IMG/VR virus record: IMGVR_UViG_3300029705_000062 | Strand: one strand, 5' to 3' | DNA length: 64,000 nt | Source: a virus | Part shown: positions 2,246 to 40,188 of the stretch, piece by piece | Position numbering within the stretch: position 1 is the first letter of the stretch | Layout of the letters: the number at the start of each line of letters is the position of its first letter | Made by a program: the position numbers and the translations under genes | Notes under the pieces: generated by a model | Told to the model about the DNA's origin: nothing | What the model saw: the letters and a program-made list of their open reading frames with translations, nothing else | Databases searched by the model: none

Positions 2246-3334
2246 ATGGGGAGAAAAGAATTTGAAAATCAGCTAGTTGAAGGTATTTTTACATCTAAAG
2301 AACTATGTTCAATGCTAGATTATAGCTATGAAACATTTAAAAGAAATAAGGGAAGAACATTTTTTTCAAAGTTAAGCAGGGTTTGTAATGTTGAAAAAAT
2401 TGGAAGTGGCAAAGGTGCAAAATATATTATATCAAATGTAACTAATGCTAATGTAGATATAAACAAAAGGAAAACTAGAGAAAATAAAGGTAGAAAGGAA
2501 TATAGGACTATGAGTGATTTATTTAAAGCACCTATTATACAACTTTTAATCAATAAAGATAATGGATCACACACTGGAACTTTTGACAATTGGCTAGTGT
2601 ACACAAGTTTAGTTCAAAAGGGATTTAGAAAACAACATGAGAAATTTTTAAAGGATTCAAAAACTTTAGGTGGTATGGAGAAAGATTTCTTTAATGTAGA
2701 AGGTCAATCTTTACACTATAATTTTGTACAAGCATTAGAAAAACTTAGAAAATCTAAACATATAGTTTGGTACAAAGTCCGTATGGTTGTTGAAAATGGG
2801 GTAGATGAAAATGGTGATGTGCTAGAAGTTCATAGAAGTATTAAAGATGATAATGAGTTATCTGCACTATTGGAATTTGAAAATAAATTTAACAAAAGAT
2901 ATGGAATAAAAGACCGTAATGATATTGTATATGGAAATCCCAAAGAAGGTATTAAAAGAAATACTACTTTACTAAAGGAATATGACAGGGAGCTAAAAAA
3001 AGAAATGTCCAAATCACTAGGATATAAAAGTACTTATACAGCATATATGGTTGCACTAAAAGATAATTCAGAAGAAAATAAAATGAAGTTACATTCAGAG
3101 TTTTGTGATTGTTTTGATATAAGCTTAATTAAAGATGATATATATCAATATAGATTAAAGAAAGCTGAACTTAGACAATCTAAAGCTAAAAGTCAAATGA
3201 CAAAAGGTTTTGGTGATAATAATATAATAGTTATGCTAAGTGAAACAGAAGTAAGACAGTTACAATATGAAAAGAAGTATGTTGCTGAATGGTTACAATT
3301 ATATAAAAAATATATACATAGATATGAAAAATAG
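2246..3334 (+). CDS. Hypothetical protein (362 aa from the ATG at 2246; ORF is open from 2168)
   Basis: Long ORF. GAGGAACAG RBS-like motif just upstream of ATG 2246. No motif I recognise. Confidence 0.6.
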   Translation: MGRKEFENQLVEGIFTSKELCSMLDYSYETFKRNKGRTFFSKLSRVCNVEKIGSGKGAKYIISNVTNANVDINKRKTRENKGRKEYRTMSDLFKAPIIQLLINKDNGSHTGTFDNWLVYTSLVQKGFRKQHEKFLKDSKTLGGMEKDFFNVEGQSLHYNFVQALEKLRKSKHIVWYKVRMVVENGVDENGDVLEVHRSIKDDNELSALLEFENKFNKRYGIKDRNDIVYGNPKEGIKRNTTLLKEYDRELKKEMSKSLGYKSTYTAYMVALKDNSEENKMKLHSEFCDCFDISLIKDDIYQYRLKKAELRQSKAKSQMTKGFGDNNIIVMLSETEVRQLQYEKKYVAEWLQLYKKYIHRYEK

Positions 3335-9907: not shown

Positions 9908-11275
9908 GTGATACCGAATAATAATTTTTATGGAAAAAAAAGTGGAAAAACAATAAGGGATTTTACTGTTGACTTAGATTATAAACTTGAAACAGTTGAG
10001 GATAGAATAGAATTTCTAAACAACAGATTAGAAATTTCAAGGGTTGGAGATGTTGAGTTTGCTCATGATTTCTTTGTAGAATTATTTGACCAAACTTTTG
10101 ATGTTATTTTAGATAAGGATGGAATTTACTGGGTTGAAGAAGAACAGAGATATATGAATTGCTCTGAGTTTATATCTTGGTCTAGTAAAAATAATGTAAA
10201 TATTAATAAGTATCTAGATATACATACAGCATTTGATGAAATAGAGTATGAAGATGAATTACAAGAAAAAGGTTATTGGAACTACAGTAATGTAAATACA
10301 AGTAGTGTTAAATTACTTTTAAATTCAACGGATGCTCAATACAGTGAAAGTAATATAGCTAATGAACTTACAAAGTTAGCAGATTATATACTTGCAAAAG
10401 ACAAAAAAGAAAGCAAAGAAAAGATAAAAATATATAGTGAGGAAGACTTTAAGAAAAGACTACATGCAGAAAAAAACAAACTTGAGCCTTTAGAAAGAGT
10501 TAATGGAGATGAGTTTGTAATATTAAAAAAAGTTGAGAATTATAGATTAGCTCCTAAAATGACTATAAATAAATCTGATTATAAATTGCCTCTTATATAC
10601 AGAGGAACTTATGAAGATTATTTAGAGCATTGGAGAACTCATCAATATAAAAAAGTTTATTTAGATGGTAAATATAAAAAAGTTTATTTAGATAAGAGTG
10701 AAATAACTAATATAGCTCCGAGTGTTTGCATGACAGAGTTCCAATGGAATAAAGGTAAGAAAAATATGTTAGATAAGATTAAGCTTTTATCTGATGCTGA
10801 AGAAAATAAATCAGCTTTAAGAAATGAGCAAGATGGATGTAGGATAAGAGGTAATTCAGTTAAAAAAGTAGTTAATAATATTGGAGATATAAATGAATAT
10901 ATGAAATCTGTAAAAACATCTTATCATAATTATGTGTGCATAAAACCTGATAAATGTCCTGCAACAGTAGATATTCTAAATATGATTGATTACTCAAATG
11001 AAAAACATATATTAGGTCTAATTGGATTTCAAGGCTCAAAAAATGATTTGCAAAATGATATGGCTATACTTTTATATGATGTGGACAATGCCATAAAAAA
11101 AGCCAGTGAATTAGGTTTAATTGATACTACTGATTTAGGAATTATATTGCTTTTAAGAAAGGGTGTGTCTAAAGAGGATATATCCAAGAAAAAAAATCTT
11201 AGTAGGATGACAGTTCATAGAAGGTTGAAAAAAATCACTCTTTCAGTTATAGATATATTAAAAGGCAAAAAATAA
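9908..11275 (+). CDS. Putative transcriptional regulator with a C-terminal sigma-70 region-4-like HTH, 455 aa (GTG start)
   Basis: C-terminus LLLRKGVSKEDISKKKNLSRMTVHRRLKKI is HTH-like. Lies just upstream of the packaging genes. Function is inferred. Confidence 0.45.
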   Translation: MIPNNNFYGKKSGKTIRDFTVDLDYKLETVEDRIEFLNNRLEISRVGDVEFAHDFFVELFDQTFDVILDKDGIYWVEEEQRYMNCSEFISWSSKNNVNINKYLDIHTAFDEIEYEDELQEKGYWNYSNVNTSSVKLLLNSTDAQYSESNIANELTKLADYILAKDKKESKEKIKIYSEEDFKKRLHAEKNKLEPLERVNGDEFVILKKVENYRLAPKMTINKSDYKLPLIYRGTYEDYLEHWRTHQYKKVYLDGKYKKVYLDKSEITNIAPSVCMTEFQWNKGKKNMLDKIKLLSDAEENKSALRNEQDGCRIRGNSVKKVVNNIGDINEYMKSVKTSYHNYVCIKPDKCPATVDILNMIDYSNEKHILGLIGFQGSKNDLQNDMAILLYDVDNAIKKASELGLIDTTDLGIILLLRKGVSKEDISKKKNLSRMTVHRRLKKITLSVIDILKGKK

Positions 11276-12142: not shown

Positions 12143-13039
12143 ATGGCTAAAAATCAAAAATGTTCTTGTTGTGGAAATTTAAAAAGCACAGTTACAGGTT
12201 ACTATATATCATACTCTCCTATGTGTGCATCTAATGATAAGAGAATGAACATATGTAAGGATTGTGTAATTGATATATATGAAAGATATGTTGATTTTTA
12301 TGGTGATGAAGTAAAGGCTTTATATAGAATTACATTATTATTTGATGGATACTTTAGCTCTTCCTTGGTTGATGTTTTAATGGCTCAAGCTAAGAAGACT
12401 AATACAAGTTTAGTTAGAGTATATTTTCAAAAGGTTAATTCTATGCCACAATTCAAGGGCAAAACAAGTTTAGATAGTGAATTTATGTCTTTAGAAGATG
12501 GATCAATCTATTCAGATGTAAGTTCAAGCGAAGAAGAAAATAATGTTGAAGTTGAAGATGATTTTATGGTTACTTCTGAAATGGTGAGAAGATGGGGTAG
12601 AGGTCTTCCAAAAGATGATTATGCTTATTTGGAAGAAAAATACCAAGAGCTAGTAGCAGTATATGACCATAGAAATCCTGTTCAACGTATGTTATATGAA
12701 AATATTTCTAGAACTCAATTAGAAGCAGAAAAAAGTAGAAGGTCAGGAAACTTACAAATGTATGAAAAAATGATGTCTACTTTATCTAAGTTAATGGGGG
12801 ATGGAAATATAAAACCTGTCCAAGAAAATACTGTGTCTGATGATGAAGCAAGTTTTGGTTTATTTATCAAGAAGATAGAAGATGAAGAGCCAATACCTGA
12901 GCCATTGGATGAATTTAAAGATGTAGATGGTTTCCGAAAGTATATCAATGAATGGTTTGTAAAACCTTTCGCTAGAATATTTGATTTAGATATGGAGAAC
13001 ACTACAAAGGAAGAAGAAGTTTATGAAGACGAAAACTAG
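12143..13039 (+). CDS. Putative terminase small subunit (position-based), N-terminal CxxC...CxxC zinc-ribbon-like
   Basis: Immediately upstream of terL and overlapping its start by 17 nt. Acidic C-terminal half. No motif-level proof. Confidence 0.4.
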   Translation: MAKNQKCSCCGNLKSTVTGYYISYSPMCASNDKRMNICKDCVIDIYERYVDFYGDEVKALYRITLLFDGYFSSSLVDVLMAQAKKTNTSLVRVYFQKVNSMPQFKGKTSLDSEFMSLEDGSIYSDVSSSEEENNVEVEDDFMVTSEMVRRWGRGLPKDDYAYLEEKYQELVAVYDHRNPVQRMLYENISRTQLEAEKSRRSGNLQMYEKMMSTLSKLMGDGNIKPVQENTVSDDEASFGLFIKKIEDEEPIPEPLDEFKDVDGFRKYINEWFVKPFARIFDLDMENTTKEEEVYEDEN

Positions 13040-13493
13040 GAAACGTAAAAGAGGTCTTCAACAGGACAGAGTTAATTTTAATGATGGAGTAAAGCTGTGG
13101 TGTGGTTTTTATAGAGAGCATATCCACAGATTTGCGGTAGATTATCTGCAATTACCACTATTTGGGTTTCAGATGATTCTACTATATATGATGAATATTA
13201 ACAATTTTTTCTATTTTTCTGCGAGTAGGGGCTTGGGAAAATCCTACTTAACATCTATATTTTGTTGTTGTAGATGTATTCTGTATCCTAACACAAAGAT
13301 TATAGTAGCGAGTGGAACTAAATCTCAGGCTAGGTTATTAATATCACAGAAGATAGAAAAAGAGTTGATGGGTATGTCTCCAAATTTAAGAAGGGAGATA
13401 GCCTATGTAAAAGTTGGGGCAAATGATGCCTTAGTAAAATTTAAAAATGGTTCAACAATAGAAGCAGTTGCATCTTCAGATAGTGCAAGAGGT
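13023..13493 (+). CDS. terL: Terminase large subunit, exon 1 (Walker A)
   Basis: SASRGLGKSY Walker A. The ORF stops 2 codons after ...SSDSARG. The frame continues in exon 2. Confidence 0.8.
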
Positions 13494-13769
13494 TATTAAA
13501 GATAGCCGTCTTAAATAGAAATATTTAAGATTATCAGAGGGTAAAATCGGAGAAAGCCTAAGTTAGAAGTAATATGGTAACACCGAGGTAATCAGGGAAA
13601 TTAAAGCATCCTTGACACCGTAGAGAGTAGATAGTGAAACTGCAAATGTAGAATATAATCTATCCACGAGTGTCCTCCACCTGACCATTAAGTTGAAGGT
13701 GAAAATATACTCCAAACTCATAAGAAATTATGAGAGCTGTAGATAAAGAGCTACAGGTTAATACAAATG
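13494..13769 (+). mobile_element. Group I-like intron 1 in terL (276 nt, no ORF)
   Basis: The upstream exon ends in T and the intron ends in G. Core blocks (GGGTAAAATCGG, AGCCTAAGT, GGTAACACCGAGGTAA, GAAACT, TAGAATATAAT) are shared with three other inserts. Removal fuses ARG to YRCNILILDE. Confidence 0.65.
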
Positions 13770-13834
13770 TATCGTTGCAATATTTTGATTTTAGATGAGT
13801 GTAGACTTATAAGTCAACATGTGCTTAACTCGAT
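13770..13834 (+). CDS. terL: Terminase large subunit, exon 2 (Walker B, 65 nt)
   Basis: Encodes YRCNILILDECRLISQHVLNS(I), an hhhhDE Walker B motif. Confidence 0.7.
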
Positions 13835-15274
13835 AAAAATGCATATTTGAGTTTTTGAGTGTAGTGTGATAACATTATTTTATGGAGGTGTTATCATGGA
13901 AGATAAATACTCAGAAAGTGAAAAACAATTTGTAATAGAGAATTACAATAAGATGACTAAAAAAGAGATTGCTAGATGTATTGGAAGAAGCGAATCATCT
14001 GTAAAAACTTTTGGAAAAAGAAATGGACTATGTAGACAATCGTCTAAAAAATGGACAGATGATGAAATAGAATTTTTAAAAAATAATTATATGAATATGA
14101 CACAGCAAGAGATGGCAAATGAACTTGGAAGAGGATATACAGCTATAAGAACAAAGTGTAGTTTGCTAGGTTTAGTTAAATTAGATTTAAGTTGGTCTGA
14201 TTCACATTCAGAGTTTTTGAAGAGTAACTATAAGAATATGACAGCCACTGAAATATCTAAAATATTAAATTGCAAAGTGTCAATGGTAAGAAACAAAGCC
14301 TTTGATATGGGACTCTTAAAAGATAGGTACACTATTGATAAAAAATTTTTTAAGTTTATAGATACAGAGGAAAAAGCCTATTGGTTAGGTTTTTTATATG
14401 CAGATGGTTGTGTAAGGAAATTTAAAGGAAAAAGCCAGTTATGTGTTGGTTTAAATGAAAGAGATATAAATCATTTGAAAAAACTAAAAAAATCTTTAAA
14501 ATCAAATGCTCCTATTTCAAAGAGAAGGAAAGATAATGCAGTTACCTTGACTATAAATTGCACTGAACTTGCAGAAGATTTAATTTCATTAGGTTGCATA
14601 CCTAGAAAAACATATAGTGAACTTTCCATACCATTGAATATACCACAAGATTTAAAACGACATTTTATAAGAGGTTTTGTTGATGGTGATGGGTGGATTA
14701 TAAATGGAGAGTACAATGGTTTTGATAGGGTTGGTATAGGTGTTGTATCTCTCAAAAAAAATATTCTATTAGATTTTAGAAAAGAATTTGAGAAACTTGA
14801 TTTACAAAGCAAAAATAAAAAATTAATATATGATAAATCAAGTAACACTTATAAGATAACTTATGCATCAAAAATAGATTCACATAAAATTTTAAATTAT
14901 TTATATAATAATTCAACAATATATCTTGATAGAAAGTATGAAAAAGCTCAAAAAGTAATGCAAAGATGTCGCACCACATCAACATCCATAGGAGATGTGG
15001 TTGAAAAGAGGGGAAAATCGGTCATAACTGAATAAATAAAATAAGTTGGTAAGAGAGCCTAAGTCCTAATGGGATATGGTAATACCGAGATAATCATGGA
15101 AAGTAAAAGTTCCATGACATTGTAGAGCATACAGGATGAAACTACAGTAGTAGAATATAATTCCTGCAAGAGTCTCCTTAAACTGTATGGATATAATAAA
15201 GTTTATAATATATGCCGAACTTATGGGAAACCATAAGAACTAGAGGATAAAAAGCCTTTAGGATAACATAATTG
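13835..15274 (+). mobile_element. Group I-like intron 2 in terL (1440 nt) carrying a LAGLIDADG endonuclease gene
   Basis: T before the 5' junction, G at the 3' end. Same core family downstream of the ORF. Removal gives ...VLNSI-LRPFLTVV. Confidence 0.65.
13896..15035 (+). CDS. Double-motif LAGLIDADG homing endonuclease with three N-terminal HTH-like repeats
   Basis: YWLGFLYADGCV and FIRGFVDGDGWI motifs. Three roughly 50-aa repeats (MTKKEIARCIGRSESSV / MTQQEMANELGRGYTAI / MTATEISKILNCKVSMV). GGAGGTG RBS before ATG 13896. Confidence 0.85.
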   Translation: MEDKYSESEKQFVIENYNKMTKKEIARCIGRSESSVKTFGKRNGLCRQSSKKWTDDEIEFLKNNYMNMTQQEMANELGRGYTAIRTKCSLLGLVKLDLSWSDSHSEFLKSNYKNMTATEISKILNCKVSMVRNKAFDMGLLKDRYTIDKKFFKFIDTEEKAYWLGFLYADGCVRKFKGKSQLCVGLNERDINHLKKLKKSLKSNAPISKRRKDNAVTLTINCTELAEDLISLGCIPRKTYSELSIPLNIPQDLKRHFIRGFVDGDGWIINGEYNGFDRVGIGVVSLKKNILLDFRKEFEKLDLQSKNKKLIYDKSSNTYKITYASKIDSHKILNYLYNNSTIYLDRKYEKAQKVMQRCRTTSTSIGDVVEKRGKSVITE

Positions 15275-15384
15275 ATTAAGACCATTTTTAACTGTTGTTC
15301 GTAGACCTAAGTTTTACGATAAACCACAATATAAAGATTATCCTCTTGAGGAGAATAAGGAGTTATACTTAACAAGTGCATGGT
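15275..15384 (+). CDS. terL: Terminase large subunit, exon 3 (110 nt)
   Basis: Encodes (I)LRPFLTVVRRPKFYDKPQYKDYPLEENKELYLTSAW(Y). The frame is consistent with the neighbouring exons. Confidence 0.65.
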
Positions 15385-15744
15385 AGTTAAAAATTGCCTA
15401 GTATCAAGTAAATTATGGGTGCTTGATACTGTAATTGGGCTAAATCGGTGCAGTTATGCATAGTTTTAATGATATCTGCATATCATTAAAATAAGAGAAG
15501 CTAAGTTTTATATAGTTCAAATTTATATAAAATATGCTAATACCGAGCTAACTAAAAAGGTAAAATCTTTTTAGAAGTGTAGAGCATAGTGGTTGAAACT
15601 ATACTTTTATATAAAAGCATAGAATATAAAACCACCAAGAGAGTCCAATCGTTGCCATAAATGACAAAGAGACGAAAAATATATGCCGACCTTATGGGAA
15701 ACCATAAGAACTAGAGGATAAAAAGCCTTTAGGATAACAATGTG
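15385..15744 (+). mobile_element. Group I-like intron 3 in terL (360 nt, no ORF)
   Basis: T/G junction rule satisfied. The 61-nt 3' end (15679-15739) matches intron 2 (15208-15268) with one mismatch. Confidence 0.65.
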
Positions 15745-16313
15745 ATAAAGAACATCATTCATATGATAAATTCGTTTCATTTAAAAATGATATGTGTAGA
15801 GGTAAAGATTATTTTTGTTGTGCTTTTCCATATCAATTAGCAGTTAAACATGGATTGCTTACTCAGTCTAGGGTTGAAGCCATAAGAAATGAAGAGGATA
15901 TGAATGAGATAACTTGGTTAATGGAAATGGAATCCATTTGGTATGGTGAGAGTATGAATGCTTTCTTTAAGTCCGCAGAGATAAATCCTTGCAGGACTAT
16001 GAAAAAAGCATGGAATCCACCAACTCCAATAGAGTATCTTCAAGAGAAAGATAAAACAAAGAAAAAATACTATCTACCTAAAGTGGGTGGAGAGAAAAGA
16101 ATAATAAGTGCCGATATATCAGTTATGGGAGGATCAGCAAATGATGCTTCCATTTTTACGTTGATACGATTAATCCCACAACATGAGGAATATATAAGAC
16201 ATGTTGTTTATATAGAATCTCATGAAGGTGGGAAGTCAGATAAACAGGCACTAAGACTTAAGCAATTATTTTACGATTTTCAAGCTGATTATATTGCACT
16301 CGATACACAGGGT
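15745..16313 (+). CDS. terL: Terminase large subunit, exon 4
   Basis: ...SAW-Y-KEHHSYDKF... through ...ADYIALDTQG. The tracked ORF 15792..16361 reads on into the intron. Confidence 0.75.
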
Positions 16314-16567
16314 AGGGAACTGCCCCTTACATTAGAAATAGTGTATAGAAAATTGGGTTAAAATTGGGAAGCTAAGGGTTTTTATCTATGCTAATCAATT
16401 ACCAATCTACATAGGGATATGTAGAAGGTTTAGAGACTAGGAGAAGTAATCTAGAACAGAAGAAACTCCCATGAAATCCAACATCTTAACTTATGAAGAT
16501 GAAGAGATAGTCCCACACTCTTATGAAAATAAGAGTTCTAGGATAAAGAGCCTAGATACAAGAGCTG
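16314..16567 (+). mobile_element. Group I-like intron 4 in terL (254 nt, second subfamily)
   Basis: Contains AAGAGATAGTCC (16502-16513), which resembles the canonical group I J8/7-P7 AAGAUAUAGUC element. Ends in ...CTG. The exact 3' junction is less certain. Confidence 0.55.
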
Positions 16568-17083
16568 AGTGGAATTGGTGTCTATGATGCCATAACTAAA
16601 GTACAATATGATGAAGACAGAGATGAAGAATATGAGAGCTTTAGAGCATTTAATGATGAAAAGATGAGTGAGAGAGCAGATAAAACTGCACTGCCAGTCA
16701 TATTCTCAATCAAAGTAGTTAAGCTTGATACAAACCATGAAATTGCAATGTCTTTAAAAGATGCATTCCAAAAAAGAAAAATAAAGCTGTTAATTAATGA
16801 GATAGAGGGAAGGGACTTCTTAGTTGAAAAACAAAATATGTTGAAGAAATCTCCTGAAGAACAGGCTTATATGATAAAGCCTTATGCTCAAACTACAGCT
16901 ATGATAAATGAGCTGATAAACCTTGATTCTCAAATTTATAATGGATTTATAAGAATAAGAGAAAGAGGTAGAAACCGTAAGGATAGATACAGTTCTCTAT
17001 CTTATGGAAATTATTTAGCTAAAATTCTCGAAAGAGATTTAAAGAAAACTAAGAAAAAAACTAAATTTATAAGTTTATGGTAG
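16568..17083 (+). CDS. terL: Terminase large subunit, exon 5 (nuclease domain C-terminus)
   Basis: Open frame SGIGVYDAITK... from 16568 continuing into tracked ORF 16664..17083. The five exons total 1731 nt, about 576 aa. Confidence 0.7.
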   Translation, partial: SGIGVYDAITKVQYDEDRDEEYESFRAFNDEKMSERADKTALPVIFSIKVVKLDTNHEIAMSLKDAFQKRKIKLLINEIEGRDFLVEKQNMLKKSPEEQAYMIKPYAQTTAMINELINLDSQIYNGFIRIRERGRNRKDRYSSLSYGNYLAKILERDLKKTKKKTKFISLW

Positions 17084-27245: not shown

Positions 27246-27369
27246 AGAGTAATAGATATTATTTATCTACTTTATTTTTATTTGTTAAAAATTTCTCACC
27301 TGAAAATAACATTATTTAAGATGTCAGGTGAAGATGACATTAAATAATATTTTTGAAGGGGGAGATGGA

Positions 27370-30300
27370 ATGTCAGATGTATTAAAGGTCAGGGTTGCAC
27401 TTGAACTTGATGCTATGGAATCAAGTAGGGATTTAAACAAAGCAATTGAAAAAATTGATTTACAGCCTATTTCAATAGGTTTAAGACTTGATCCAAATAA
27501 AGTTGATTTAAGTGCATTGCATAAACTTGATTTTTCTGATATTAGAAATAGATTTGAAGATATATTTGATATAGATAGTTCGGTTATTCGTGATTTAAGA
27601 GAATCTATGAACTCTATAGAAAGAATTATAAATACAAAGCTAAGTGTAAAAAACATAGCTATGTTTGACCAGTTAGCAGAGTCTTTAACTGATTTAGGAA
27701 GAGCTTTTAATATAGACACTAAATCACTAGATAGATTTGAAACATTAAACTCAACTCTTGCAGAGTTTAATAAACTTAGTAAGGAAGCTCAAAATGCACT
27801 TATTAGTAAAAATCCTACTAGAAAAGTTGTAGGTAATTTAGATGATATTTCTAATGAAGTAGATAAAAAGTTTGGAGTATCTTCTAGCCAACTTGCTAAG
27901 AGTATAGAAAAAGGCTCAAAGGAATTAAATGAGTCATTAGGAAAAATGGCAGATGCTCAAATAAAGAGTGCTACAAAATACCTTGATGTACAAGATGGTA
28001 TATCACAGGTTATAAGAAGTAAATGGAATGATTGGACAGATTTAACTGAAACTATTTTTACAGATGGAAGTAAATTAGGTAAATTAACTGCTAATACGGA
28101 AACTTACCTAAATAAAATGGAAAAACAGTATAAATCTGTTTCAGATAATATAAGAAAATATAGTATAGATTTACATAAGGCAATGTCTGAAGGTGATTTA
28201 GGTGGTATTGCTCACTATGAATCTATAATTAAAGATTTTAAAAATCTTAAGAAGAAAATGGTTGAGGATATAGGTGCTTCTCCATTTGCAGATAAATTAA
28301 ATTCAGAGTTTTCTAGAATAGATGCTTTAAATAAAAAAATTCAAGATTTTTCTACTTCACAGTATGATAGTGGAGTTTTAGAAAAACAGCAAAAGCAATA
28401 TATAGAAAAAATCGAAACTTTTGCTAATAAGATTTTAAAATTAAATAAAGAGATAAGTAAAGCCAAAGATGAAGGTTTGGTGGGGGAATATACACAAACT
28501 TTAATCTCAGATGTAAAAAAGGCAAAAGGTGAATTATCAAAGTATTTAAATGAAGCTGTAAAAGATATATTCCCTGATGACTTAAAAGCTAGAGCTGAAC
28601 TTAAGAAAAAAGCTACTGATATTGTAGAAGCTATGGATGATGCTAAAAATCTATTCCAAGCTAAAATAGATGAGAAGAGGGATAAAAAAACCCAAGATAG
28701 TGATTTAAGTAAATTTATAAAAGAATACAAGCAGAACATCAATGAAATAGAATCATTAAATAAAAAGATGGAAACTGCTTTAAGTAAAGGTCAGTTTGAC
28801 TATGCAAGTGATTTACAAACTGAAATTAATTTACTTAATAAAAAACAAGAAGAACTACAGAAAAATGCTAGTGCTTTAACTTCTTATAAAAATGCTATGA
28901 AGAGTGTTGCTGAGATAGAGGAAAAATCTAGGAAGAACACTGAGCTTCATAATTCTTACTTAGAGAATAGAAATAAACTTCAACAGCAACTGGCAGACAA
29001 AAAAGCAGAAGAAAAATTAGCCAAAGAAGAAAGTGCTAAAAGGGATCAAGAGTTAAGGGATATCCAAAATAAGCAAAAACAATATTGGGAGGATATGCTT
29101 AAGCATCAAGATATTGTAGCTAAAGGTTATGAACAAGTTACTAAAACTTTAACTGATAAGCAAAATCAATATATAAAAGCTTTATCTGAGGATTCTACTG
29201 AAAAGGCAAAGGGTCTTCAAGAAAGTATAAAATATTGGAAGGCACAAAAGGATAGCCTTCTTGATGAAATAAATAGAGGTAATTTTACTTCTGATTTCTA
29301 CGATAAGATAAATGCAATAGATAAAAGAAATAATTTAACTGTCAATGAGTTTGAAGGCTCTTTAAGTGACAAGATAGGAAAACAAAATAGTCAAAAAGAA
29401 AAAGCCTTAATTTCTGTCTATGATAAATTAGCTAAAAATCTTGCTAAACAAGAATCAAAAGTTTTAGAAGCTCTATCTAAAGGTAATATGGATCAATATG
29501 AAGCATATAAAAATACTTTAGATGAATATAAGCAACGTACTTCTGATTTTATTAAAGGTATAGATTTTGATAATTTTTCTTCTGAACTTAGAGAAGCATT
29601 TGCTAAAATTGATGTTGATAGTGGTTTACTATTATCTGAAAATATTGCAAAAGTAGATGATAAGTTAAGAGATAAACTTGTTAAAGATAATGAGAATTTA
29701 CAGAAATCTTTAATTAATGAATATAAAAATATATCTAAAGCTATCACTTCTAAAGAAGGAGAACTTGTAAAAGCATTTGCAAATGATAGTACACATTCAG
29801 CAGATGCTCTTGAGAGGACTTTAGAAGGTTTATATAAGCAACATGAAGAAACTATATCAAAAATAAAATCAAATAGCTTAGGTGATGTTTTAAAAGCTCA
29901 GATGGATGAGATAGATGCCATTAGAGTTAATAGGTTAGGTGAAGTTGACGGTAAGGTTGCAGATAGTTTAGAAAGAGAAAATTTAAAACAGGAAAATCAA
30001 GCTATAAGTAAACTTTTAGCAGAATATAGAAAAAATGCTACTGAACTTTCTAAATTAAAGAAAGAGATGTTTACTGCTCAAGAAGATGGGGCAACAGTTA
30101 AGTTTGCTCAATCTAGGATAGATGATTTAAACCTTGAACAACAGGAGATAAGAGAAAGCATAAAGGCTTATAATGATTATGCTAATGCTCTTAGTCGCAT
30201 AGATAGTTTACAAAGTCAAATTAATGCAAATGATGAACTTGCTAAAGCTAAGAATATTGATAAGGTCGCTAAGGAAACAGGAAAAAGCGAAGAAGATATT

Positions 30301-32151
30301 CTTAATAAGATAGCAAAAGAACGAGAAAAAATTGCTAAGTTAGTTGAGAAGGAACAGTCTTCTGTTGTTGATGTATATGAAAAATATGCCAAACTTGTTT
30401 CTCAAGCAGAAAAGCAATATCTAACTGCGGTTATTAATGATGATAATACTACTGCACAAGCTATAGAAAAAGTTATTGATAGATATCAAAAGTTAAAAGC
30501 TGATATTTTAAATCAAATAAATGATAAAGGTTTAGATACTTTATTTAAAGATAGACTTAGTAGTATAGACAAAGATATATCTCTTGATTTTAATATTCAT
30601 GCAGGTAAGTTATCTGACAAGGTAGCTAAAAATCAACTTAAAGAAGATGCAAAAGCATTGAAAGAATTTGTTGATGAGTATGATAGATTATATAAGAGTA
30701 TAACTGATGAAAAAATTAAGATAGCAAATTACAACCAAAAAGGTGAAACTGTAAATGCTCAGGCTCACACTTCTAATTTAAATAGACTTGAAAAAGAACT
30801 AAAAGCTCATAATAAAACTATCGAAGCCTTAAAGTACAAAGAAAAGGCTTTAAAAGAAGTTGCCAATATTGAAAAGCACTATGGCAATACCTTAGAATTA
30901 GGCATGGCAGGTGTTGGTCAAAAAATACAAACTTCTACTTATAAGGAGTTTAATAAACTTCAAAATGAGTTGGTATCTAAGTATAAGGATTTATACAATG
31001 AACAGTTAAGATTTGAAAAGGCTATATCTAAAGCTGTTGATACTTCTGAGTATAATAAATTAAATTCAGATTTAGAAAAAGTAAAAGATAAACTTAAAGA
31101 AATTAGAAGTCAAATAAAAAGCCAAGATCATATAGATAATATAGAATTATTTGAGGAAGGTAAGGTAACTGCTCAAAGTAGAGAGGTTACACAGTCTATA
31201 AGTAAGATAAGAAGTGAAGCAGAAAAACTTTTAGCTTCAACAAAGGAACTAAGAAATAGTGAGTTTGTAGATAAAGCTTCTTTATCTCTTGTTGAAAATT
31301 ACTTTACAAAATTATCTACAACAAGTCTTGATGGAACAATAAGTGATGTTAGGCAATTAAATACTCAATTAGCTCAAGCAAAAGATTTACTATCTCATTT
31401 GGAAAAAGGAATAGATAATAGAATTTTCCAATCTAATAAACAAATAGAGATGGGTAAAATTAATGACTCTATTGCTAAGTTTAAGAATGATTTTAGTGGT
31501 GTTTTAGATAGAGCATCTTTTGAAGCAATAGAATCTTCTGCAAGAAGATTAGCTAGTGTAATGGATAAAGATTCCTTTAGTCAAGGTGCTAAAGAATTAA
31601 CAGCTCAGTTAAAACAAGCTAGAAACCAAATGGATGGTTTGGTTAGATCAAGTAATAAGTATAATTTCTTTGAAGATTTATACACTAATATGAGAACATA
31701 TCAATTAGGTGATTTAATTTTTGATGGAGTGCAAAATGCTTTATATAGTGTTAAGCAGATAGTAATAGATTTAGATTCTGCTATGGCAAACATTAGAAAA
31801 GTTGCTGACCCTATCGATATCAATACAATTGATAAGTTAGATGAAATAAAATCTAAGGCTATACAAGTTTCTAAAGAAGTTGGTATGGCAAGTTCAGATG
31901 TTATAAATTCCATAGCTGATACTATCCAATCAGGTGGGTATCGTATGGAAGAAGCAATAGAAATTGCAAAGCAGACTATGATGTTAGCAAATGTTGGTGA
32001 GATGACTGCTGATAGTGCAACAAAAGGTGTTGTATCTATGTTAGCAGGATTTAACTTAAGTCCACTAAGAGAAATGCAAGTAGAAGTAAATGGCATGACT
32101 CAAAAGACAAATGAACTGACAAATGCAATGGATATGGTCAACCATGTGGGT
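27370..32151 (+). CDS. Tape measure protein, exon 1 (about 1594 aa, coiled-coil rich)
   Basis: Start chosen at the ATG after the GAAGGGGGAG RBS (the ORF is open from 27328). Ends ...AMDMVNHVG just before the conserved TMP core. Confidence 0.75.
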
Positions 32152-32517
32152 TAATTTATAGCTCCTGCATATAGTGATATATGCTGAAAATTTCTTGAAT
32201 TGCTAAAAAATCCTTAGAGATTGTTAAACTACAACATGACTGGAAACGGTGAGTGTGAATGTTTTAAAAATTAACAATATTGGACAATTAGCAGGGAAGA
32301 TTCTAAATTATAATAATTTTAATAAAAATGCATATAATAAAATTGTAACAAGAATAACCTTCAACGACTATTGCAGACATGCAAGTACATCACAAGCTAT
32401 GGGTGATGGAAGTGGGAAACATCCCTAGTGGATGAAGATATAGTCTACTCTATATGGAAACATATAGCAGTTCATAGGAGAACGGTGTATGTGTAGCGAA
32501 CATATATGAATAAAAGG
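32152..32517 (+). mobile_element. Group I-like intron 1 in the tape-measure gene (about 366 nt, no ORF)
   Basis: Contains AAGATATAGTC (32435-32445), identical to the classical group I J8/7-P7 element. An in-frame stop at 32494-32496 forces the 3' splice site to 32498-32517. The exact junction is ambiguous (G32508 or G32517). Confidence 0.55.
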
Positions 32518-32672
32518 AATAACTTTGCAATTTCAACAGAAGGTATTATAAATGCAATGCAAAGTGGGGGTACTGTTTTACATTCATATGGAATAGATAT
32601 GGAAAAAACAATTGCTCTTATCACTGGTGCAAATAAGACCTTACAAGACCCTAGTGTTACTGGGAATGGGCT
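32518..32672 (+). CDS. Tape measure protein, exon 2 (conserved TMP core, about 52 aa)
   Basis: NNFAISTEGIINAMQSGGTVLHSYGIDMEKTIALITGANKTLQDPSVTGNGL matches the conserved TP901-type tape-measure core pattern (from memory). Confidence 0.7.
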
Positions 32673-33968
32673 AAGATTTTGGCGTTCTATGTAGAAATAT
32701 ATAGAAAGATAAGAGGGCAAAATCGGTCATAGTTATTGTGAAATAACTGGTAAGAAAGTTTAAATCTTGGTATAAAAAATAAAAAATAGTAATATAATTA
32801 CATAGGAGGTGTATCTGAATATGGCGAGAAGATTCTCATATGAAGAAGTTAAAACCTATGTACAATCAAAGGGAGTTGAGTTAGTAAGCACAGAATATAT
32901 AAATGGGAAAATTCCATTAAATTTTATATGTAAATGCGGAAAACCATTTAAAAGAAATTTAAAAAATTTTAAATACAATAATCTGTGTTTAAGGTGCGGT
33001 AGTAATTCTCTTTCTTATGAAGAGGTTAAAGAATACATTGAGTCAAAAGGGTGTAAATTAATAAGTGAAGAGTATGTAAACAATGAAACTGAATTGGAGG
33101 TTAAATGCCCCTGTTCAAAAACTTACTTTGTAATGTTTAGGGATTTTAAATCTAAAAAAAGATATAAGTGTCCTACATGCAATAAAAGACCAAACTACAC
33201 ATATGAAGAGGTTAAACTTTTTGTGGAAGGTAAAGGATGTAAATTAATCAGTAAAACTTACATTAATAATGCCACTAAATTAGATATTGTATGTAAATGT
33301 GGAGAGCCATTTAAAAGAAGGTTTAATAGTTTTAAAGACTCTCAACAATATTTTTGTTTAAAGTGTAGTAAAACTTCAAAAGGTGAGTTAAAAATAAAGG
33401 AAATATTAACTAACTATAAAATTAACTTTATACACCAATATAAGTTTGATGATTGTAAATTTAAACATCCTCTTGTTTTTGATTTTTACTTACCTGAATA
33501 TAATATATTAATAGAATATGACGGAAGACAACATTTTGAAATAGTTAAAGCATTTGGAGGGTTAGATGAATTTATTAATATTAAAATAAGGGATACTATA
33601 AAAAATGAGTATTGTAAAAATAATAATATAAAACTAATAAGAATACCTTACTGGGAATTTAAAAACCTAAAAAAACATTTAACTAAAATATTAAATGAAA
33701 ATATCAAGATAAAATAACACCGAGGTAAGTCAAAGAAGTAAAGAACTTTGACCACCGTAACGCATAGGATTTGAAACTATGCTTTTTTTTATGAAAAAAG
33801 TATAGAATATAATAATCCCAAGAGTGTCCTCCACCTGACCATTAAGTTGAAGGTGAAAATGTATGCTAAACAGGGTATGAAAAGACATACCGATAACTTT
33901 AGTAAAATAAAGAAATGAGGGAAACCTCCTGAGCCTAAGATAAAAAGCTTAGGGATAATAACAATTTG
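32673..33968 (+). mobile_element. Group I-like intron 2 in the tape-measure gene (1296 nt) carrying a Vsr-like endonuclease gene
   Basis: The exon ends in T32672 and the intron ends in G33968. Junction codon CT|A gives GNGL-KSIAINMAGIK. Cores AGAGGGCAAAATCGG, TAACACCGAGGTAA, TAGAATATAAT and a 39-nt block match terL intron 1. Confidence 0.7.
32821..33717 (+). CDS. Intron-encoded endonuclease: three zinc-ribbon DNA-binding repeats plus a C-terminal Vsr/PD-(D/E)XK-like nuclease domain
   Basis: Three roughly 55-aa repeats (SYEEVK.Y.ESKG..L.S..Y.N....L...C.CG..F.....F). C-terminal FDFYLPEYNILIEYDGRQHF...IRIPYWE is typical of Vsr-like/DUF559-type nucleases. TAGGAGGTG RBS. Confidence 0.7.
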   Translation: MARRFSYEEVKTYVQSKGVELVSTEYINGKIPLNFICKCGKPFKRNLKNFKYNNLCLRCGSNSLSYEEVKEYIESKGCKLISEEYVNNETELEVKCPCSKTYFVMFRDFKSKKRYKCPTCNKRPNYTYEEVKLFVEGKGCKLISKTYINNATKLDIVCKCGEPFKRRFNSFKDSQQYFCLKCSKTSKGELKIKEILTNYKINFIHQYKFDDCKFKHPLVFDFYLPEYNILIEYDGRQHFEIVKAFGGLDEFINIKIRDTIKNEYCKNNNIKLIRIPYWEFKNLKKHLTKILNENIKIK

Positions 33969-36900
33969 AAAATCTATTGCCATTAATATGGCAGGTATAA
34001 AAGCTGATGCTTATACAGGCGAACTAGCTTTAAATAAAACAGCTCTTGCTCTTAAAGAAATAGCAAATATAGATGTCTACTCTGATAAGAAAAAGGGTGA
34101 GATAAAAGATATGGTTTCTATCCTTGACGAACTGTATGAACGTTGGGGAGATTTTACGGAAGAGGAACAGCTTGGACTAGCTGAAAGTATAGCGGGTAAG
34201 CAACAGTCCAAAGTTTTCCAATCTTTAATGACAAACTACAAAGATGTTTTATCTGTTAGAGAGCAATTATCTAATCAGGAACATTTTGGTAGTGCAGAAA
34301 GAGAGAATACTCAATACTTAGATAGTATCAGTGGTAAACTAAATGAGCTTAAGCAAACATGGATTTCTATATTAGATACATTTGCAAATTCAGATAGTAT
34401 AAAGAGTGCATTAGATGTGCTAATATCTGTATCTGAAGGTGTGGAAACAGTTGTAAAAGCTTTGGATGATGCAGGAATATTATTACAAGCTACTTTCACA
34501 GCATTTACATCAGGTGGAAGTCTACTTAAGAATCTAGCAGGATTTGGTGAAAGTTCTTATCAAATAAGACAAGTTGGAAATTCATTACAGCTTGTTGCAA
34601 CTCAAGCTAGTGCAGGAAATATACCACTAAAGCAAATGTTTAGTGGATTTACTAAGGGAACTACAGTAACTCAAAAACTTGGTAATGGATTAAAAACACT
34701 TGGTAAGTCTATGACTGCAAATTTAATACCAAGTTTTAAAGGTATGCTTTCAGCAGGATTAAAAGGCATGGCTGTGTCAGCAGTGATTACAGGTATTGGA
34801 TATGCACTTGATAAAACTGTAAATAAGTATAAGAATTTAGATAAGGAGTTACAGGCTCAAGCTGATACTACAGCTTCGCAACTAGAAGGATATAAAAAGC
34901 AAAAAAGTAGTTTAGAAGCTTTAGCAGATCAGTATGATACATTAGCTAAAAAATCTAATAAAACTGCTGAGGAACTTGCAACATTTAATGAATTAAAACA
35001 TCAAATTGCAGATTTATCTCCTGATTTGGTAATAGGTTATGACAGTGAGAATAATCCTATACTAAACTTAAATGGTAGCTTAGAAACATATATATCAAAC
35101 TTAGATGATGCCATTACTAGACAAAGAACTTTACTAGCAGGAGATAGTATGGCAGTTGGTAAAAATGCACTTGATAGTTTAAGTAGCACTTTAAACTTTA
35201 ACTTAACTCCTGATTTTAAATTAGATGATAGTGCTTTAAAAGAACAAGATGAAGCTATAGGTACTGCTAGGGAAAATTTAGTTAAAAAGCTTAATAAAAT
35301 AAATGAAGGACTTAACTTCAAAAGCCTTGAAGGAGAGTTAAAAAGTTATGCTCAACAAAATGACAAATACAATGAGCAGATAGTAAAGAGCTATCAAAAA
35401 GTTCAGGAAGCTCATGCTAAGATAACTGAACAAACATCAAAAGCAAAACAAGGTATAAATGCTCAATTAATGGACACTTCTGAAATGAAGAAAGCAGGGG
35501 AAGAAGTTCAAAAACTTGGAGCAAAAATGATTTCTGCTTTTGACTGGTCAGAGGTGGATTCAAATAGAGTTGACCAAATGGTTTACAATATGTCTAAAAA
35601 TCTTACTTCAGGGGAGTTTGATACAGCACTACAAAAAGTTGCGGAACTTAGACAAGAGCTTGAAGAAACTTATGATGTTGAAAAGTATGAATCACAAATA
35701 GATAAGTTCGTACCTCAAGTAGCAGATTTCTTAGGTGTATCAGAAGACATGGCTAGGTCTATGTTAAAAGTTCCTGAGATAATGAAGAGTTCAGAAGATG
35801 CTTTAGATCAGTTCCTTAGAACTATGGGTAAAACTAAAAAGTCTTTAAACTTTGATGTTGAAGCTCAAAATTTAGCGGAACAGTTCTATGCTGTTAATGA
35901 TGCAATATATCAATTAGCAGATACCTCAAATCTTGTAACAATAGATAATAAAATACAATTAAATCCTGAACTTGTTTTAAACACACTAAATAATGAATCT
36001 ATTCCTGAGCAAATAAGGAAATTATTAGGAGAGTTTAATAAAGACGGAGTTGTTGATGTTGGCGAAGTAGAACTTATGCTAGATGTTATGACAGCATTTA
36101 AATTAGGGGACACTCACCAGTCAAAAGAAATATTGGCACAAGTTCAAGAGGAGTTAGATAAAACATTAGGTGAAGGTGTAATAAATGTAAAAGACCTTAA
36201 ATTTGATGTTAATGGAAAAGTTGAAAATGTCAATATAGATAGCAAGGAACTTGAAGAAAAATTATCTGTACTTGGTGATAAGAAAGAATTAAAAACTCTT
36301 TTCACAACTGAGGTTATAGGATTAGATAGACTAGAATATTATACAGAAATTGTAAATAAGCTTCCTGCTGATTCTGAACATACAGAGAAATTTATAGTTG
36401 ATAATCAACAGGCTATATCTGAATTAAATAACTATAAAGAAGTAAAGGAATGGATAATAGCTCATCCTGAAGTTATTTCTAAATATAGATTAAATGTAGA
36501 AAAAGACCCTGAACTTAAAACTGCCTTAGAAGAATTTGAAAAGAACAACGGTAAAACAAGTGAAATTAAGGCTAAAGTAACAGAAGAAGGGGCAGATGAA
36601 ACTAACCAAAAACTTGAGGAAACAAAGAATAAAGCTGATGAGCTAGATAATAAAGATATTAACTTAACAGTTAATAATGGAGAATTACAAGGCTCAGTAG
36701 AAGATTTTAATAAACTTATAGAATACTCATCTAAATTAAAAGATGGTGAATATAAGTTATCTTTTACCTCTGACACTGGTGAATCTATAAACCAAATAAA
36801 TAATCTTAAAAATGCTATAAATGACCTTTCAGGTGCATTTAGTTCTTTACCTAGTGTAACAGTAAAAATTGAAACAGCACTTGCTAGTCAGAATATAACA

Positions 36901-39900
36901 GGATTAAGAAATAATATAGAAAGTTTTAAAACTTTAGCAGGTGGATTACAAACATTAGTATTTAAGACTGATACTGCACTTGCTAGTAAGAATGTTACAG
37001 GATTAAGAAATAATGTAGATAGTTACATTAAACAAAGAGCAGGGAAATCTTATTCTACAAGATTTAACACTGAGACAGCCTTAGCTAGTAAAAATGTTAC
37101 TGGTTTAGCAAATAAGGTTTCTAGTTATGTAAGAAGCTATGGTAATAGAACTATTAAGACTACTTTTAGTGTGGTAACAAAATATTCTACACAGGGAACT
37201 CCTACAACTCAAAGCAAAGGAGCAAAAGTTACTGGAAGAGCTATTCCTACATATGTTCCTGAATCATATGAAGTGGCACAGGTAAATGCTTCTCCTTTAA
37301 GTGAGTTTGCCAATCAAGTTCAAAGTGATACTGTAGCAATACAACGTATGGCAAGAACTGGTCAGGGAGTTTCAGAAGCTGTATCATCATATAGTTCTTC
37401 TATGGCTAGTATATCATCAAGAGCATTAACAAAAGCATTAGATAGTAATAAAGTTATTGATATGCTAAATCTTGATGTTGATCCTTTTAAAGATTTAGAA
37501 GATGTTTTAGAAAGAATTTCCAGTGAGTTAGATTTACTTAGTAAAAAAGCTGACTTAGCTTTTGGAAATGAAAAAATAACATATCTTAAAAGACAAGTAG
37601 AACTTCTTAAACAACAACAGCAAATCCAAAATAAACTAAGTAAAGATTATGCAACTCAACAAAATGAGTTAAAGTATTACTTAGGAAAAAAAGGATTTAC
37701 CTTTAACAGTCAAGGTGATGTAACTAATCAAGTTGATAAGTTATATCAAATGGAAAAATACGTTAAACAGCTTGAAGATAAAGTTAATGCACAGGGAGAT
37801 AAGAAAAATGAAGCTTTATCTAAGCAGTATGAAAGTGCTAGAGATGAATTAGAAAAAACTAAGGAAGTCTTAGAAGAGTATGTTAATAATAATTCTAAGG
37901 GTGTTACTGGTGCTACTAAGGAATGGTACGAACTTCAACAACAAATAAATGAAGCTCGTATGGAGATAATTCAAGCAACTATAGATGCTAAGAATTTTAA
38001 GTTTGAGATAGGTGCTAAAAAGTTTGAAGCAGAAGTTGATAAATTATCTAATGCAATTAACTTAATAGATAAACAGATTGAATATGCTTTTGGAGATGAA
38101 AAAGATAAGTTATTCAAGAAGAAGATAGAGTTATTAAAGAAACAGCAAAAAGAAGTTCATAATTTAGCTAACCAATATAGGGAACAGGCTAAAAGTATAG
38201 GGCAATTTTTAAATCAACAAGGTTTTATAATTAATTCCAGTGATGGAAGTATAGGTAATATAGAACACCTAGAGAGCTTTAAAAACAGTGGAATATATGA
38301 AGAAATAACTGAACAACTAGAGAAGTATATAGAATTAACTCAAAGTAAAATACCTGACCTTCAAGAAGAATGGTGGGAACTAAGAGAAGCAATAGATGAA
38401 GCTAGAATTGCTACTTTAGAAGCAAAAGATGAAATGTCTGATTTAGTATTAGAAATAAATATTTCTAAACTAGATACTGCTCTTAAAAAGATAAAGACTG
38501 AAATCAATAGACTAGAAAGAGAAATTGATAAAGCCTTTGGTAGCAAGAAAGAAGGTTTATTAAATGATAAGATAGATAAGTTAAAAGAAGAGCAAGATAA
38601 ACTTCATCAAATGGCAAATGAATATAGACAGCAAAGGCAAGAAATAGCTAACTTCTTAAATTCAAAAGGGTTTATAATTCATCCTGATGGCTCAATAGGA
38701 AATCCTGAATTTATCCTTAGCTTTAAAGAAGACCCTGCTCTAATGGAGTATTTACAAGGTCTTATAGATAAACATACTAGCTTAGGTGATAAAATAGCTG
38801 ACCTTGGAGAAGATTGGTGGAGTGTTCAAGATTCCATAGAAGATACAAAAGATGCTATAGAAGAAGCTAGAAAAGAATTAGAAAAATTCTTAAATGAAGC
38901 GAAAATTGAAGCACTGCTTGACCAGTTTAATGACCTTGCTCATAAACTTGATTTAATAGATAAAAAACTTAAACATGCAACTGGCAAGGATAAGTTAGAT
39001 TTATTAAGTCAAAAACTTGAGTTAATAAAAGAACAACAAATAGAATTACAAAAACATTGGGAGTTCTTTACTAATAAAAAGAATACTCTTCAAATGGAGT
39101 TAGGTCAACTAGGATTTACATTTGATGCAGATGGAGATATTACAAATTATGTAGAACAACTTGAAAGTATAGCTAACTCATCTGATGATTTTGAGGAAGT
39201 TAAAGATAAGTTAGAAGAATACTTTGATATTCAAAATGATAGATTACCTAGTATTGAAAGTGATTGGCTAGACCTTGAGAATACATATAAAGATGTCTTA
39301 AAAGAACAGCTTAATACAACTAAGGAAATTGAAGATAAAATTACTGAAATGTATAAAAAGCAAGTTGAAGACAGAATAGATGCAATGAACAAGGAAACTG
39401 ATGCCAAGATAAAAGCTCTTAAAAAGCAACAGGATGCCTATAATAAATATCGTGAAGAAACTGATTACAAAAATGAGTATGAAGATAAATTATTAGAAAT
39501 AAATGATATACAAAGGCAACTTGATATAGCAATGAAAGATACTTCTTTGGCAGGGCAAAAGAAAGTTAAGGAGCTACAAAAGCTATTAGCTGATGCTCAA
39601 AAGGAGTTAGATAAATTCACTCAAAATAAAATTGATAGTGATATCAATGATATGTTTGATAAAGAGAGTGAAAGAATAGAAGAAGAAAATGATAAGGCTA
39701 TAGAAGAGCTTGAGAAAGAATGGTCAGATAGTAAGATAGCTGAAATGGTTGCACAAGCATTACAAACTGGTATATTTACAGGAATAGATGGAAGTGTACA
39801 AGACCTTCAAGATGCTATGTTACAATTTGCCAATGATACTGGTGAATTGTTTGGAGTTATGGGAACTGTTATAAAATCCGAGTTAATAACTAACTTAGAT

Positions 39901-40188
39901 ATAGCAAAAAATACAGTTAAAGAACTTAACAAGATAATTAAAGAATTAGACTTGGAACAATTTGCGGTACTATCAGGTGCTTCAAGTTTTAGTAGAACTA
40001 TTTCAGGAGTAAGTATGGAAAGTTATACAAAGCCTATTCAAAATAATTATAGTCCTGAAATAAGATTTGATTCTCCATTAATTCATATAGAAGGAAATGT
40101 TGATAATGATGTATTAATGACTCTTGAAAGCTACGGAGAAAAATTAACTAAAGATATAATAAATCAAATTGCAGGAGCAATAAGATAA
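33969..40188 (+). CDS. Tape measure protein, exon 3 (about 2073 aa)
   Basis: The frame is open from 33970 (KSIAINMAGIK...), upstream of tracked ATG 33988. Hydrophobic segment near aa 250, then long coiled-coil repeats. Confidence 0.75.
36871..37140 (+). repeat. Three tandem 33-aa repeats (ETALASKNVTGLRNNV.S) inside the tape-measure gene
   Basis: ETALASQNITGLRNNIESF / DTALASKNVTGLRNNVDSY / ETALASKNVTGLANKVSSY. Confidence 0.8.
37500..39250 (+). repeat. Four tandem modules of about 140 aa inside the tape-measure gene
   Basis: Each module has L(D/I)L(L/I)(S/D)K..(A/E/K).AFG.(E/K)K......(I/V)ELLK.QQ ... N..GF(T/I)(F/I).....G.I.N plus WWEL/WWSV/WLDL. Confidence 0.75.

Follow-up and report, generated by a model that had tools for sequence, protein, structure and literature searches.

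Staphylococcus phage Twort carries three group I introns in orf142, and phage T4 carries IA2 introns in td, nrdB and sunY; these are IA-type ribozymes with peripheral P7.1/P7.2 helices, inserted at conserved functional sites. Lactobacillus phage LL-H reportedly contains a single group I intron in its large terminase gene. A 2025 study of the Bastillevirinae described two or three IA2/IA3-like group I introns per interrupted terL, with splicing observed in vitro and in vivo (PMC11878797). In these Bacillus phages, terL (that of SIOphi among others) and DNA polymerase genes are affected, the IA-like introns often contain homing endonuclease open reading frames (ORFs) and the internal exons are small (PMC11878797). 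Exon skipping was seen in SIOphi TerL and Twort orf142, and the Rfam and GISSD models under-detect phage introns (PMC11878797). Here, we analyzed terL, the gene of the large terminase subunit, in a 64,000-nucleotide (nt) stretch of viral DNA (IMG/VR record IMGVR_UViG_3300029705_000062), referred to below as the window. With a probability of about 0.92, terL of this SPbeta/phiCD211-like clostridial phage consists of five exons and four IA-type group I introns, and its spliced mRNA would encode a TerL of 576 amino acids (aa).

Compared with the Bastillevirinae, the window possesses four introns in terL, belongs to a temperate-type SPbeta/phiCD211-like clostridial phage and has internal exons of 65 and 110 nt; its splicing is predicted. 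Several introns in one gene also occur in Twort orf142, whose introns, as those of T4, resemble the window introns in their P7.1/P7.2 helices and conserved functional sites but lie in a different host gene. The open-access literature yielded no case of four or more group I introns in a single phage gene, and the window terL is one intron above the published maximum of three per terL, in another phage lineage; its biology is of an ordinary kind, and what stands out is the degree. The LL-H precedent invoked by the initial annotation of this DNA held in that terL introns were already known, and was too narrow, up to three per terL being described (PMC11878797).

The five terL exons were placed as follows.

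13023..13493, + strand: exon 1, 471 nt, residues 1-157, with Walker A SASRGLGKS inside
13770..13834, + strand: exon 2, 65 nt, YRCNILILDECRLISQHVLNS, with Walker B
15275..15384, + strand: exon 3, 110 nt, with the C motif LTSAW at its 3' end
15745..16313, + strand: exon 4, 569 nt
16568..17083, + strand: exon 5, 516 nt including the stop codon

Once joined, these exons give 1731 nt, an uninterrupted frame of 576 codons followed by a stop codon. All four upstream exons end in T (GGT, GAT, GGT and GGT), a U in the RNA, and all four inserts end in G (ATG, TTG, GTG and CTG), so that a terminal G (omega-G) closes every intron at junctions that both the reading frame and intron-less homologues require. 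At the junctions (marked ^ here and below) the product reads SARG^YRCNILILDE, LNS(I)LRPFL, TSAW(Y)KEHH and LDTQG^SGIG. The initial annotation had proposed five exons, four introns and all of these coordinates, as well as the terminal T and G; the 576-codon join and the homologues bore them out at every junction. The ORF listing presented only three long terL fragments, each extending a few codons into an insert up to a stop.

The joined TerL matched Pfam Terminase_6N with 31.3 bits (cut-off 22). Using tblastn against 50,697 phage records, we obtained matches in 152 records, 138 of which covered at least 80% of the query at one place. The best matches were single pieces with approximately 45% identity, in Clostridioides phages phiCD211, LIBA2945 and phiCDIF1296T and in the SPbeta group (YonF), and the joined TerL covered 94-100% of YonF and of the phiCD211-type TerL at that identity. 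As the initial annotation had anticipated for intron-less homologues, no junction fell at an alignment gap in comparisons with LIBA2945, SPbeta YonF and the TerL of LC76P1. Walker A and Walker B of the joined protein aligned to those of T4 gp17. The claim that the inserts interrupt the most conserved ATPase motifs held for sites 1 and 3, adjacent to Walker B and the C (coupling) motif, and failed for the other two: site 2 interrupts a part of the ATPase domain with moderate conservation, and site 4 (ALDTQG^SG) falls in the C-terminal nuclease half, outside the ATPase motifs. The terL gene is neighboured by a phiCD211/YonG-like terS candidate (phrog_3314) and a portal gene (phrog_2739), and no terminator-like site was found on the + strand within terL.

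Without splicing, an in-frame stop would be met 2, 5, 0 and 16 codons into introns 1 to 4, respectively, and skipping exon 2 (65 nt), exon 3 (110 nt) or both would shift the frame. Since every unspliced intron stops translation and the skipping of exons 2 or 3 disrupts the frame, all four introns need correct removal. In the relative L018, described below, the spliced TerL is also exactly 576 aa, and the ratio of nonsynonymous to synonymous substitution rates (dN/dS) between the two spliced frames was 0.076 at a dS of 0.61. The low ratio indicates strong purifying selection, and it is therefore on the spliced frame that selection acts.

To avoid circularity, the covariance model R2 was based exclusively on introns from other phages, 12 in number, with an RNAalifold consensus; RNAalifold on these foreign introns recovered P7, P7.1, P7.2, P8, P9 and P9.1. 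The R2 matches ended at most 2 nt from the predicted 3' splice site for all four terL introns, and elsewhere in the 64 kb the model found only two tape-measure introns (140.6 bits, and a weak 17). The introns are the following.

13494..13769, + strand: intron 1, 276 nt, no ORF; P2-P9.1 complete; Rfam 45.2 bits, R2 135.0 bits; same-site orthologue in L018 92% identical
13835..15274, + strand: intron 2, 1440 nt; core P2-P9.1 at 14974-15274; R2 134.9 bits; 69% identical to intron 1 over 223 nt
15385..15744, + strand: intron 3, 360 nt, no ORF; P4 and P5 separated by extra hairpins; R2 136.4 bits, match ending exactly at 15744
16314..16567, + strand: intron 4, 254 nt, no ORF; R/S-like elements GUUUAGAGACUA ... 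AAGAGAUAGUCC; Rfam 63.5 bits, R2 51.1 bits

The claim of the initial annotation that the inserts share conserved cores was upheld: introns 1, 2 and 3 are paralogues, 69-71% identical over 210-220 nt, intron 4 is more distant, and full P1-P9.1 folds with covariation were obtained. Putative P1 and P10 pairings and helices P2, P3, P4, P5, P6/6a, P7, P7.1, P7.2, P8, P9 and P9.1 were placed in all four introns, with pairs checked by script, and the predicted fold of each contains the P3/P7 pseudoknot and a P7 with a bulged A. As presented below, P3, P7 and P7.1 vary between the terL introns by compensatory changes.

P3: intron 1 GAGGGU/GUCCUC, intron 2 GAGGGG/CUCCUU, intron 3 AUUGGGC/GUCCAAU, intron 4 GGGUU/AAUCC
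P7: intron 1 G-a-GAGUA/UACUC-C, introns 2 and 3 G-a-GCAUA/UAUGC-C, intron 4 G-a-GACUA/UAGUC-C
P7.1: intron 1 GAUAG/CUAUC, intron 2 CAGGA/UCCUG, intron 3 GUGGU/ACCAC, intron 4 GGAG/CUCC

The inner helix (P7.2) reads CUGC/GUAG, CUAC/GUAG and CUAU/AUAG. As a sequence pattern, P7 shows a G-C pair with a bulged nucleotide beside it and R/S-like flanks AGAGNNUA ... AAUAUAUNNNCC, and the closing G-C pair of P7 is replaced by A-U in 8 of 22 relatives. The J6/7-P7 element (GUAGAGCAUA, GUUUAGAGACUA) resembles the classical R consensus of Cech and of Michel and Westhof, and the J8/7-P7 element (AAUAUAUGCC, AAGAGAUAGUCC) their S consensus. In all four introns, P7.1 and P7.2 follow the 5' strand of P7 and precede the 3' strand of P3, with covariation in all five P7.1 pairs. 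Extra helices at this position assign the predicted folds to subgroup IA as a whole.

We then quantified the pairing. In an unfitted MAFFT alignment of seven introns, 93.7% of the cells of P3-P9.1, pseudoknot included, were paired, compared to 38-43% in slid controls, and 32 of 55 pairs had changed on both sides, a number reached by none of 500 shuffles. The 3' half of the intron alone was 98.9% paired (8 sequences). For 22 model-aligned introns from 13 loci, 98.0% of the cells were paired and 27 of 34 pairs were compensatory, in an alignment which is fitted to the model and thus leans towards structure. MAFFT alignments that mix both intron types or include the sequence L006 misalign P4'-P6 and P7.1, and type-restricted alignments were used.

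The Rfam search for Intron_gpI (RF00028) suggested by the initial annotation had a mixed outcome. Intron 4 matched the full model with 63.5 bits (E 4e-16), above the gathering score of 50. In contrast, the 64-kb window searched at the gathering score, and 4.4 kb searched at E<=10, gave nothing. As matches appear on short stretches, these long-stretch negatives are artefacts of the speed filters: with Rfam cmscan on stretches of 0.3-1.9 kb, 3 of the 6 group I introns of the window score 45-70 bits, two of them above the gathering score, whereas default or 4.4-kb filters detect none of the six. For AT-rich phage DNA, a negative whole-window Rfam scan hence does not speak against the presence of group I introns. 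Introns 2 and 3 were assigned to group I from their homology to intron 1, their compensatory helices and the independent covariance model.

On this basis, we propose the following course of splicing. The terS, terL and portal genes would be transcribed as one RNA, in which each intron would fold into a P3-P9 core. Pairing of an internal guide with the last bases of the upstream exon would form P1, with a U.G wobble where cleavage occurs, and pairing of the guide with the first bases of the downstream exon would form P10. P7 would bind an external guanosine, which would attack the 5' splice site, the freed 3'-OH of the exon would attack behind the terminal G of the intron, and four such excisions would give the mRNA for the 576-aa TerL. 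This two-step, guanosine-initiated self-splicing of each terL intron is a prediction from the modelled folds. Introns 1 and 4 possess guides at the canonical place, 5' of P2: in intron 1, GAUA^GCC(g)UCU pairs with AGAGGU^UAUC (a P1 of 6 bp in which one guide base is bulged, and a P10 of 4 bp), and in intron 4, ACU^GCCC pairs over 7 continuous bp with the ligated exons, GGGU^AGU.

Several observations weigh against this reading. With Rfam, intron 1 reached its 45.2 bits over the full model (E 1.4e-10), below the gathering score, and introns 2 and 3 searched alone gave no match. The only G.U-wobble guide of intron 2 is GAU^GUCG (14965-14971), just 5' of P2 and 1.13 kb downstream of the 5' splice site; a nearer 6-bp candidate, UUGAGU (13847-13852), places a U opposite U(-1). 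At the canonical position of intron 3, GCC (15396-15398) faces GGU with 3 bp of P1 and 1 bp of P10. In a G.U-anchored guide scan, the best pairings were no better than those of shuffles, 12-95% of which reach the best match somewhere in the intron, and P1/P10 therefore provide consistency at the expected position and not statistical evidence. Splicing of terL is predicted from the DNA sequence, and some Bastillevirinae introns were spliced in vivo and not in vitro (PMC11878797), so that strict self-splicing of the window introns is not guaranteed. Besides these guides, the intron-3-specific insertion that separates P4 from P5 contains GUUAUGCAU (15453-15461), a complement of the final 9 nt of exon 3 with three G.U pairs. 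This complement lies off the canonical guide position, a match as long occurred in 233 of 2000 shuffles, and the complementarity may be due to chance.

The weak P1/P10 of intron 3 and the unclear guide of intron 2 would also fit a terL pseudogene in a decaying prophage, in which at least one intron relic (e.g. intron 3) no longer splices and no full-length TerL is made; an endonuclease gene lost from, or never present in, three of the four introns points in the same direction. We consider this unlikely: no core helix is disrupted in any of the four introns, the frame is kept at exactly 576 codons, the dN/dS of 0.076 was obtained with a relative that itself retains two of the introns, and the structural module of the window is made up entirely of long intact ORFs.

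It is highly improbable that terL is expressed without splicing, as separate assembling polypeptides, in the manner of genes with free-standing endonuclease insertions. The three sizeable fragments of the ORF track and the endonuclease gene in one insert are compatible with such an organization, but exons 2 and 3 (21 and 36 codons) have neither an in-frame ATG nor a Shine-Dalgarno sequence and yet hold Walker B and the C motif, and the inserts carry ribozyme cores with covariation. Equally, there is almost no chance that the inserts are group II introns, inteins, insertion sequences or miniature inverted-repeat transposable elements, or translational bypass elements, which account for the bare fact of interruption and nothing more. 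In-frame stops 0-16 codons past each 5' junction exclude inteins, lengths of 254-1440 nt rule out bypassing, and neither a reverse transcriptase nor a group II match in Rfam was found. Terminal inverted or direct repeats were not seen by eye, no dedicated repeat search having been run, and a group I core is present. Overall, the organization in five exons and four group I introns remains our reading of the locus.

Intron 2 is the only terL intron with an ORF.

13896..15035, + strand: intron-2 ORF, 379 aa, three helix-turn-helix repeats and a double-motif LAGLIDADG homing endonuclease

This ORF matched Pfam LAGLIDADG_3 with 37.7 bits (cut-off 22.5) and the endonuclease family phrog_4645 with an E value of 1.5e-52, and its translation contains the LAGLIDADG motifs LGFLYADGCV and IRGFVDGDGWI. 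It is preceded at 7 nt by a Shine-Dalgarno sequence, GGAGG (13884-13888), and lies upstream of the core, its last 62 nt or so overlapping P2 and the 5' strands of P3 and P4. A hairpin, UGAUAAC/GUUAUCA (13867-13896), encloses this Shine-Dalgarno sequence and abuts the ATG; it may restrain endonuclease translation.

The predicted LAGLIDADG enzyme suggests that the terL introns are or were mobile, and the three ORF-less introns probably spread by co-conversion beside intron 2 or by past homing. Introns 1-3 are inserted within 175 nt of coding sequence. They could form one mobile unit driven by the intron-2 enzyme: an empty site 2 would be cut and repaired from the window allele, and the ORF-less introns 1 and 3 would be carried along. 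The ORF may also occupy the P1 loop, which would place the guide 1.13 kb downstream, inside the ORF, and would make endonuclease translation and terL splicing mutually exclusive. We hold this combined proposal only tentatively and rather doubt it; if it were true, four GTP-dependent ribozymes would act as successive gates to the synthesis of TerL.

We looked for empty and occupied alleles in relatives from IMG/VR and one metagenome-assembled genome, with sites mapped by tblastn. A scan of genome contigs provided one relative only, and a megablast of phages and plasmids for near-identical records gave only matches of 50-80 nt at intron 3' ends. The informative relatives were the following (aa identity to the window TerL).

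L018: 94% (540/576); site 1 with an intron 92% identical to intron 1, sites 2 and 3 empty, site 4 with an intron 70% identical to intron 4; no other inserts
L015: 86%; sites 1-4 all empty; an extra 1.3-kb insert after residue 70, within Walker A
L014: 59%; sites 1-3 empty, site 4 with an intron bearing a 373-aa endonuclease ORF; an intron of the same family ends just before residue 71
L020: 56%; sites 1-4 all empty; an insert after residue 101

At the empty site 2 of L018, AAGTCAACATGTGCTTAACTCGAT^ATTAAGACCATTTTTAACTGTTGT, 48 of 48 nt are identical to the spliced junction of the window. Exon identity between the window and L018 was 97-100% near sites 1-2, 72-77% near site 3 and 80-82% near site 4, a sequence pattern that would fit co-conversion tracts brought in with the introns. 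Two further terL insert sites were observed among the relatives, after residue 70, within Walker A (SASRG^LGKS), and after residue 101, the inserts being located in L015 (1627-2959), L014 (1-262), L021 and L020 (3262-5000). Those of L015 and L014 belong to the terL intron family by covariance model (91-107 bits), and terL of this clade has at least six intron sites. Within positions 181-240 of the terL coding sequence (window approximately 13203-13262), identity to L018 and L015 drops to 58-68%, compared to 88% overall to L018. The dip coincides exactly with the surroundings of the Walker A site, where L015 carries an intron, and may be the footprint of a past intron or variation conferring endonuclease resistance. 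With six occupied sites and clear empty alleles, this locus and its relatives make up a small natural model in which homing, co-conversion and the order of splicing can be studied.

The window contains six group I introns in all, the other two being in the tape-measure gene.

27328-40188: tape-measure gene, three exons (27328-32151, 32518-32672 and 33969-40188), split by two group I introns
32152..32517, + strand: tape-measure intron 1; Rfam Intron_gpI 70 bits; junction HVG^NNFAIS
32673..33968, + strand: tape-measure intron 2, of the family of terL introns 1-3; 111 bits with covariance model R1 and 140.6 bits with R2; junction GNGL^KSIAIN
32821-33717: ORF of tape-measure intron 2, 298 aa; phrog_559 5e-71 (labelled HNH); Vsr/EDxHD-like with the motif EYDGRQHF; in the P5 loop

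These junctions were fixed by the intron-less tape-measure proteins of phages AR1086-1 and LIBA2945, according to which junctions after FWR and before NKR are off by 9-12 nt; the ORF track runs 3-4 spurious residues into each intron. Pfam gave nothing useful on the tape-measure intron ORF, terS or portal, whereas PHROGs recognised all three. Gene callers deliver the essential terL as three fragments and lose the micro-exons with Walker B and the C motif, and the tape-measure gene is likewise given in three. Such fragmented calls make correct intron models important for annotation and for TerL-based phage classification.

The same intron family was found in other phages, by sequence and by model R1 (75-165 bits), in terL or tape-measure hosts. 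In terL, members occur in S. thermophilus phage CHPC1042 (Rfam 51 bits, above the gathering score), in Staphylococcus phages IMEP5, S-CoN_Ph1 and SpP, and in Arcanobacterium phage TPWB06, whose terL is in three pieces. In tape-measure genes, they occur in Staphylococcus 6ec-like phages (6ec), C. perfringens plasmid-phages and phiCD211/phiCDKH02, phiCD211 having a neighbouring intron annotated as Intron_gpI. Unlike the window terL, CHPC1042, the 6ec-like phages, IMEP5, TPWB06 and phiCD211/phiCDKH02 have one or two introns per gene, with insertion sites in unrelated TerL families, and the introns mostly appear as unannotated gaps between coding-sequence fragments. In phiCD211 (L008, LN681537.2), an unannotated member of the family (approximately 2949-3223, R1 147 bits) lies directly upstream of the annotated Intron_gpI, the two being separated by a micro-exon of only approximately 25-30 nt. 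In phiCD211, a single gene probably underlies the annotated 'Minor tail protein' and 'Tail tape measure protein'.

Among minor observations, intron 4 gave a weak blastn match at 10576-10643 of the window (E 0.006), which neither covariance model confirms, and a sigma-factor-like ORF of 455 aa lies at 9908-11275 (phrog_5767, 3.7e-28). The two endonuclease-bearing introns of the window carry enzymes of different families in different loops. Finally, the endonuclease of the site-4 intron of L014 (1360-2481) has a C-terminal EYDGxQH motif in common with the ORF of tape-measure intron 2, a likeness seen by eye.

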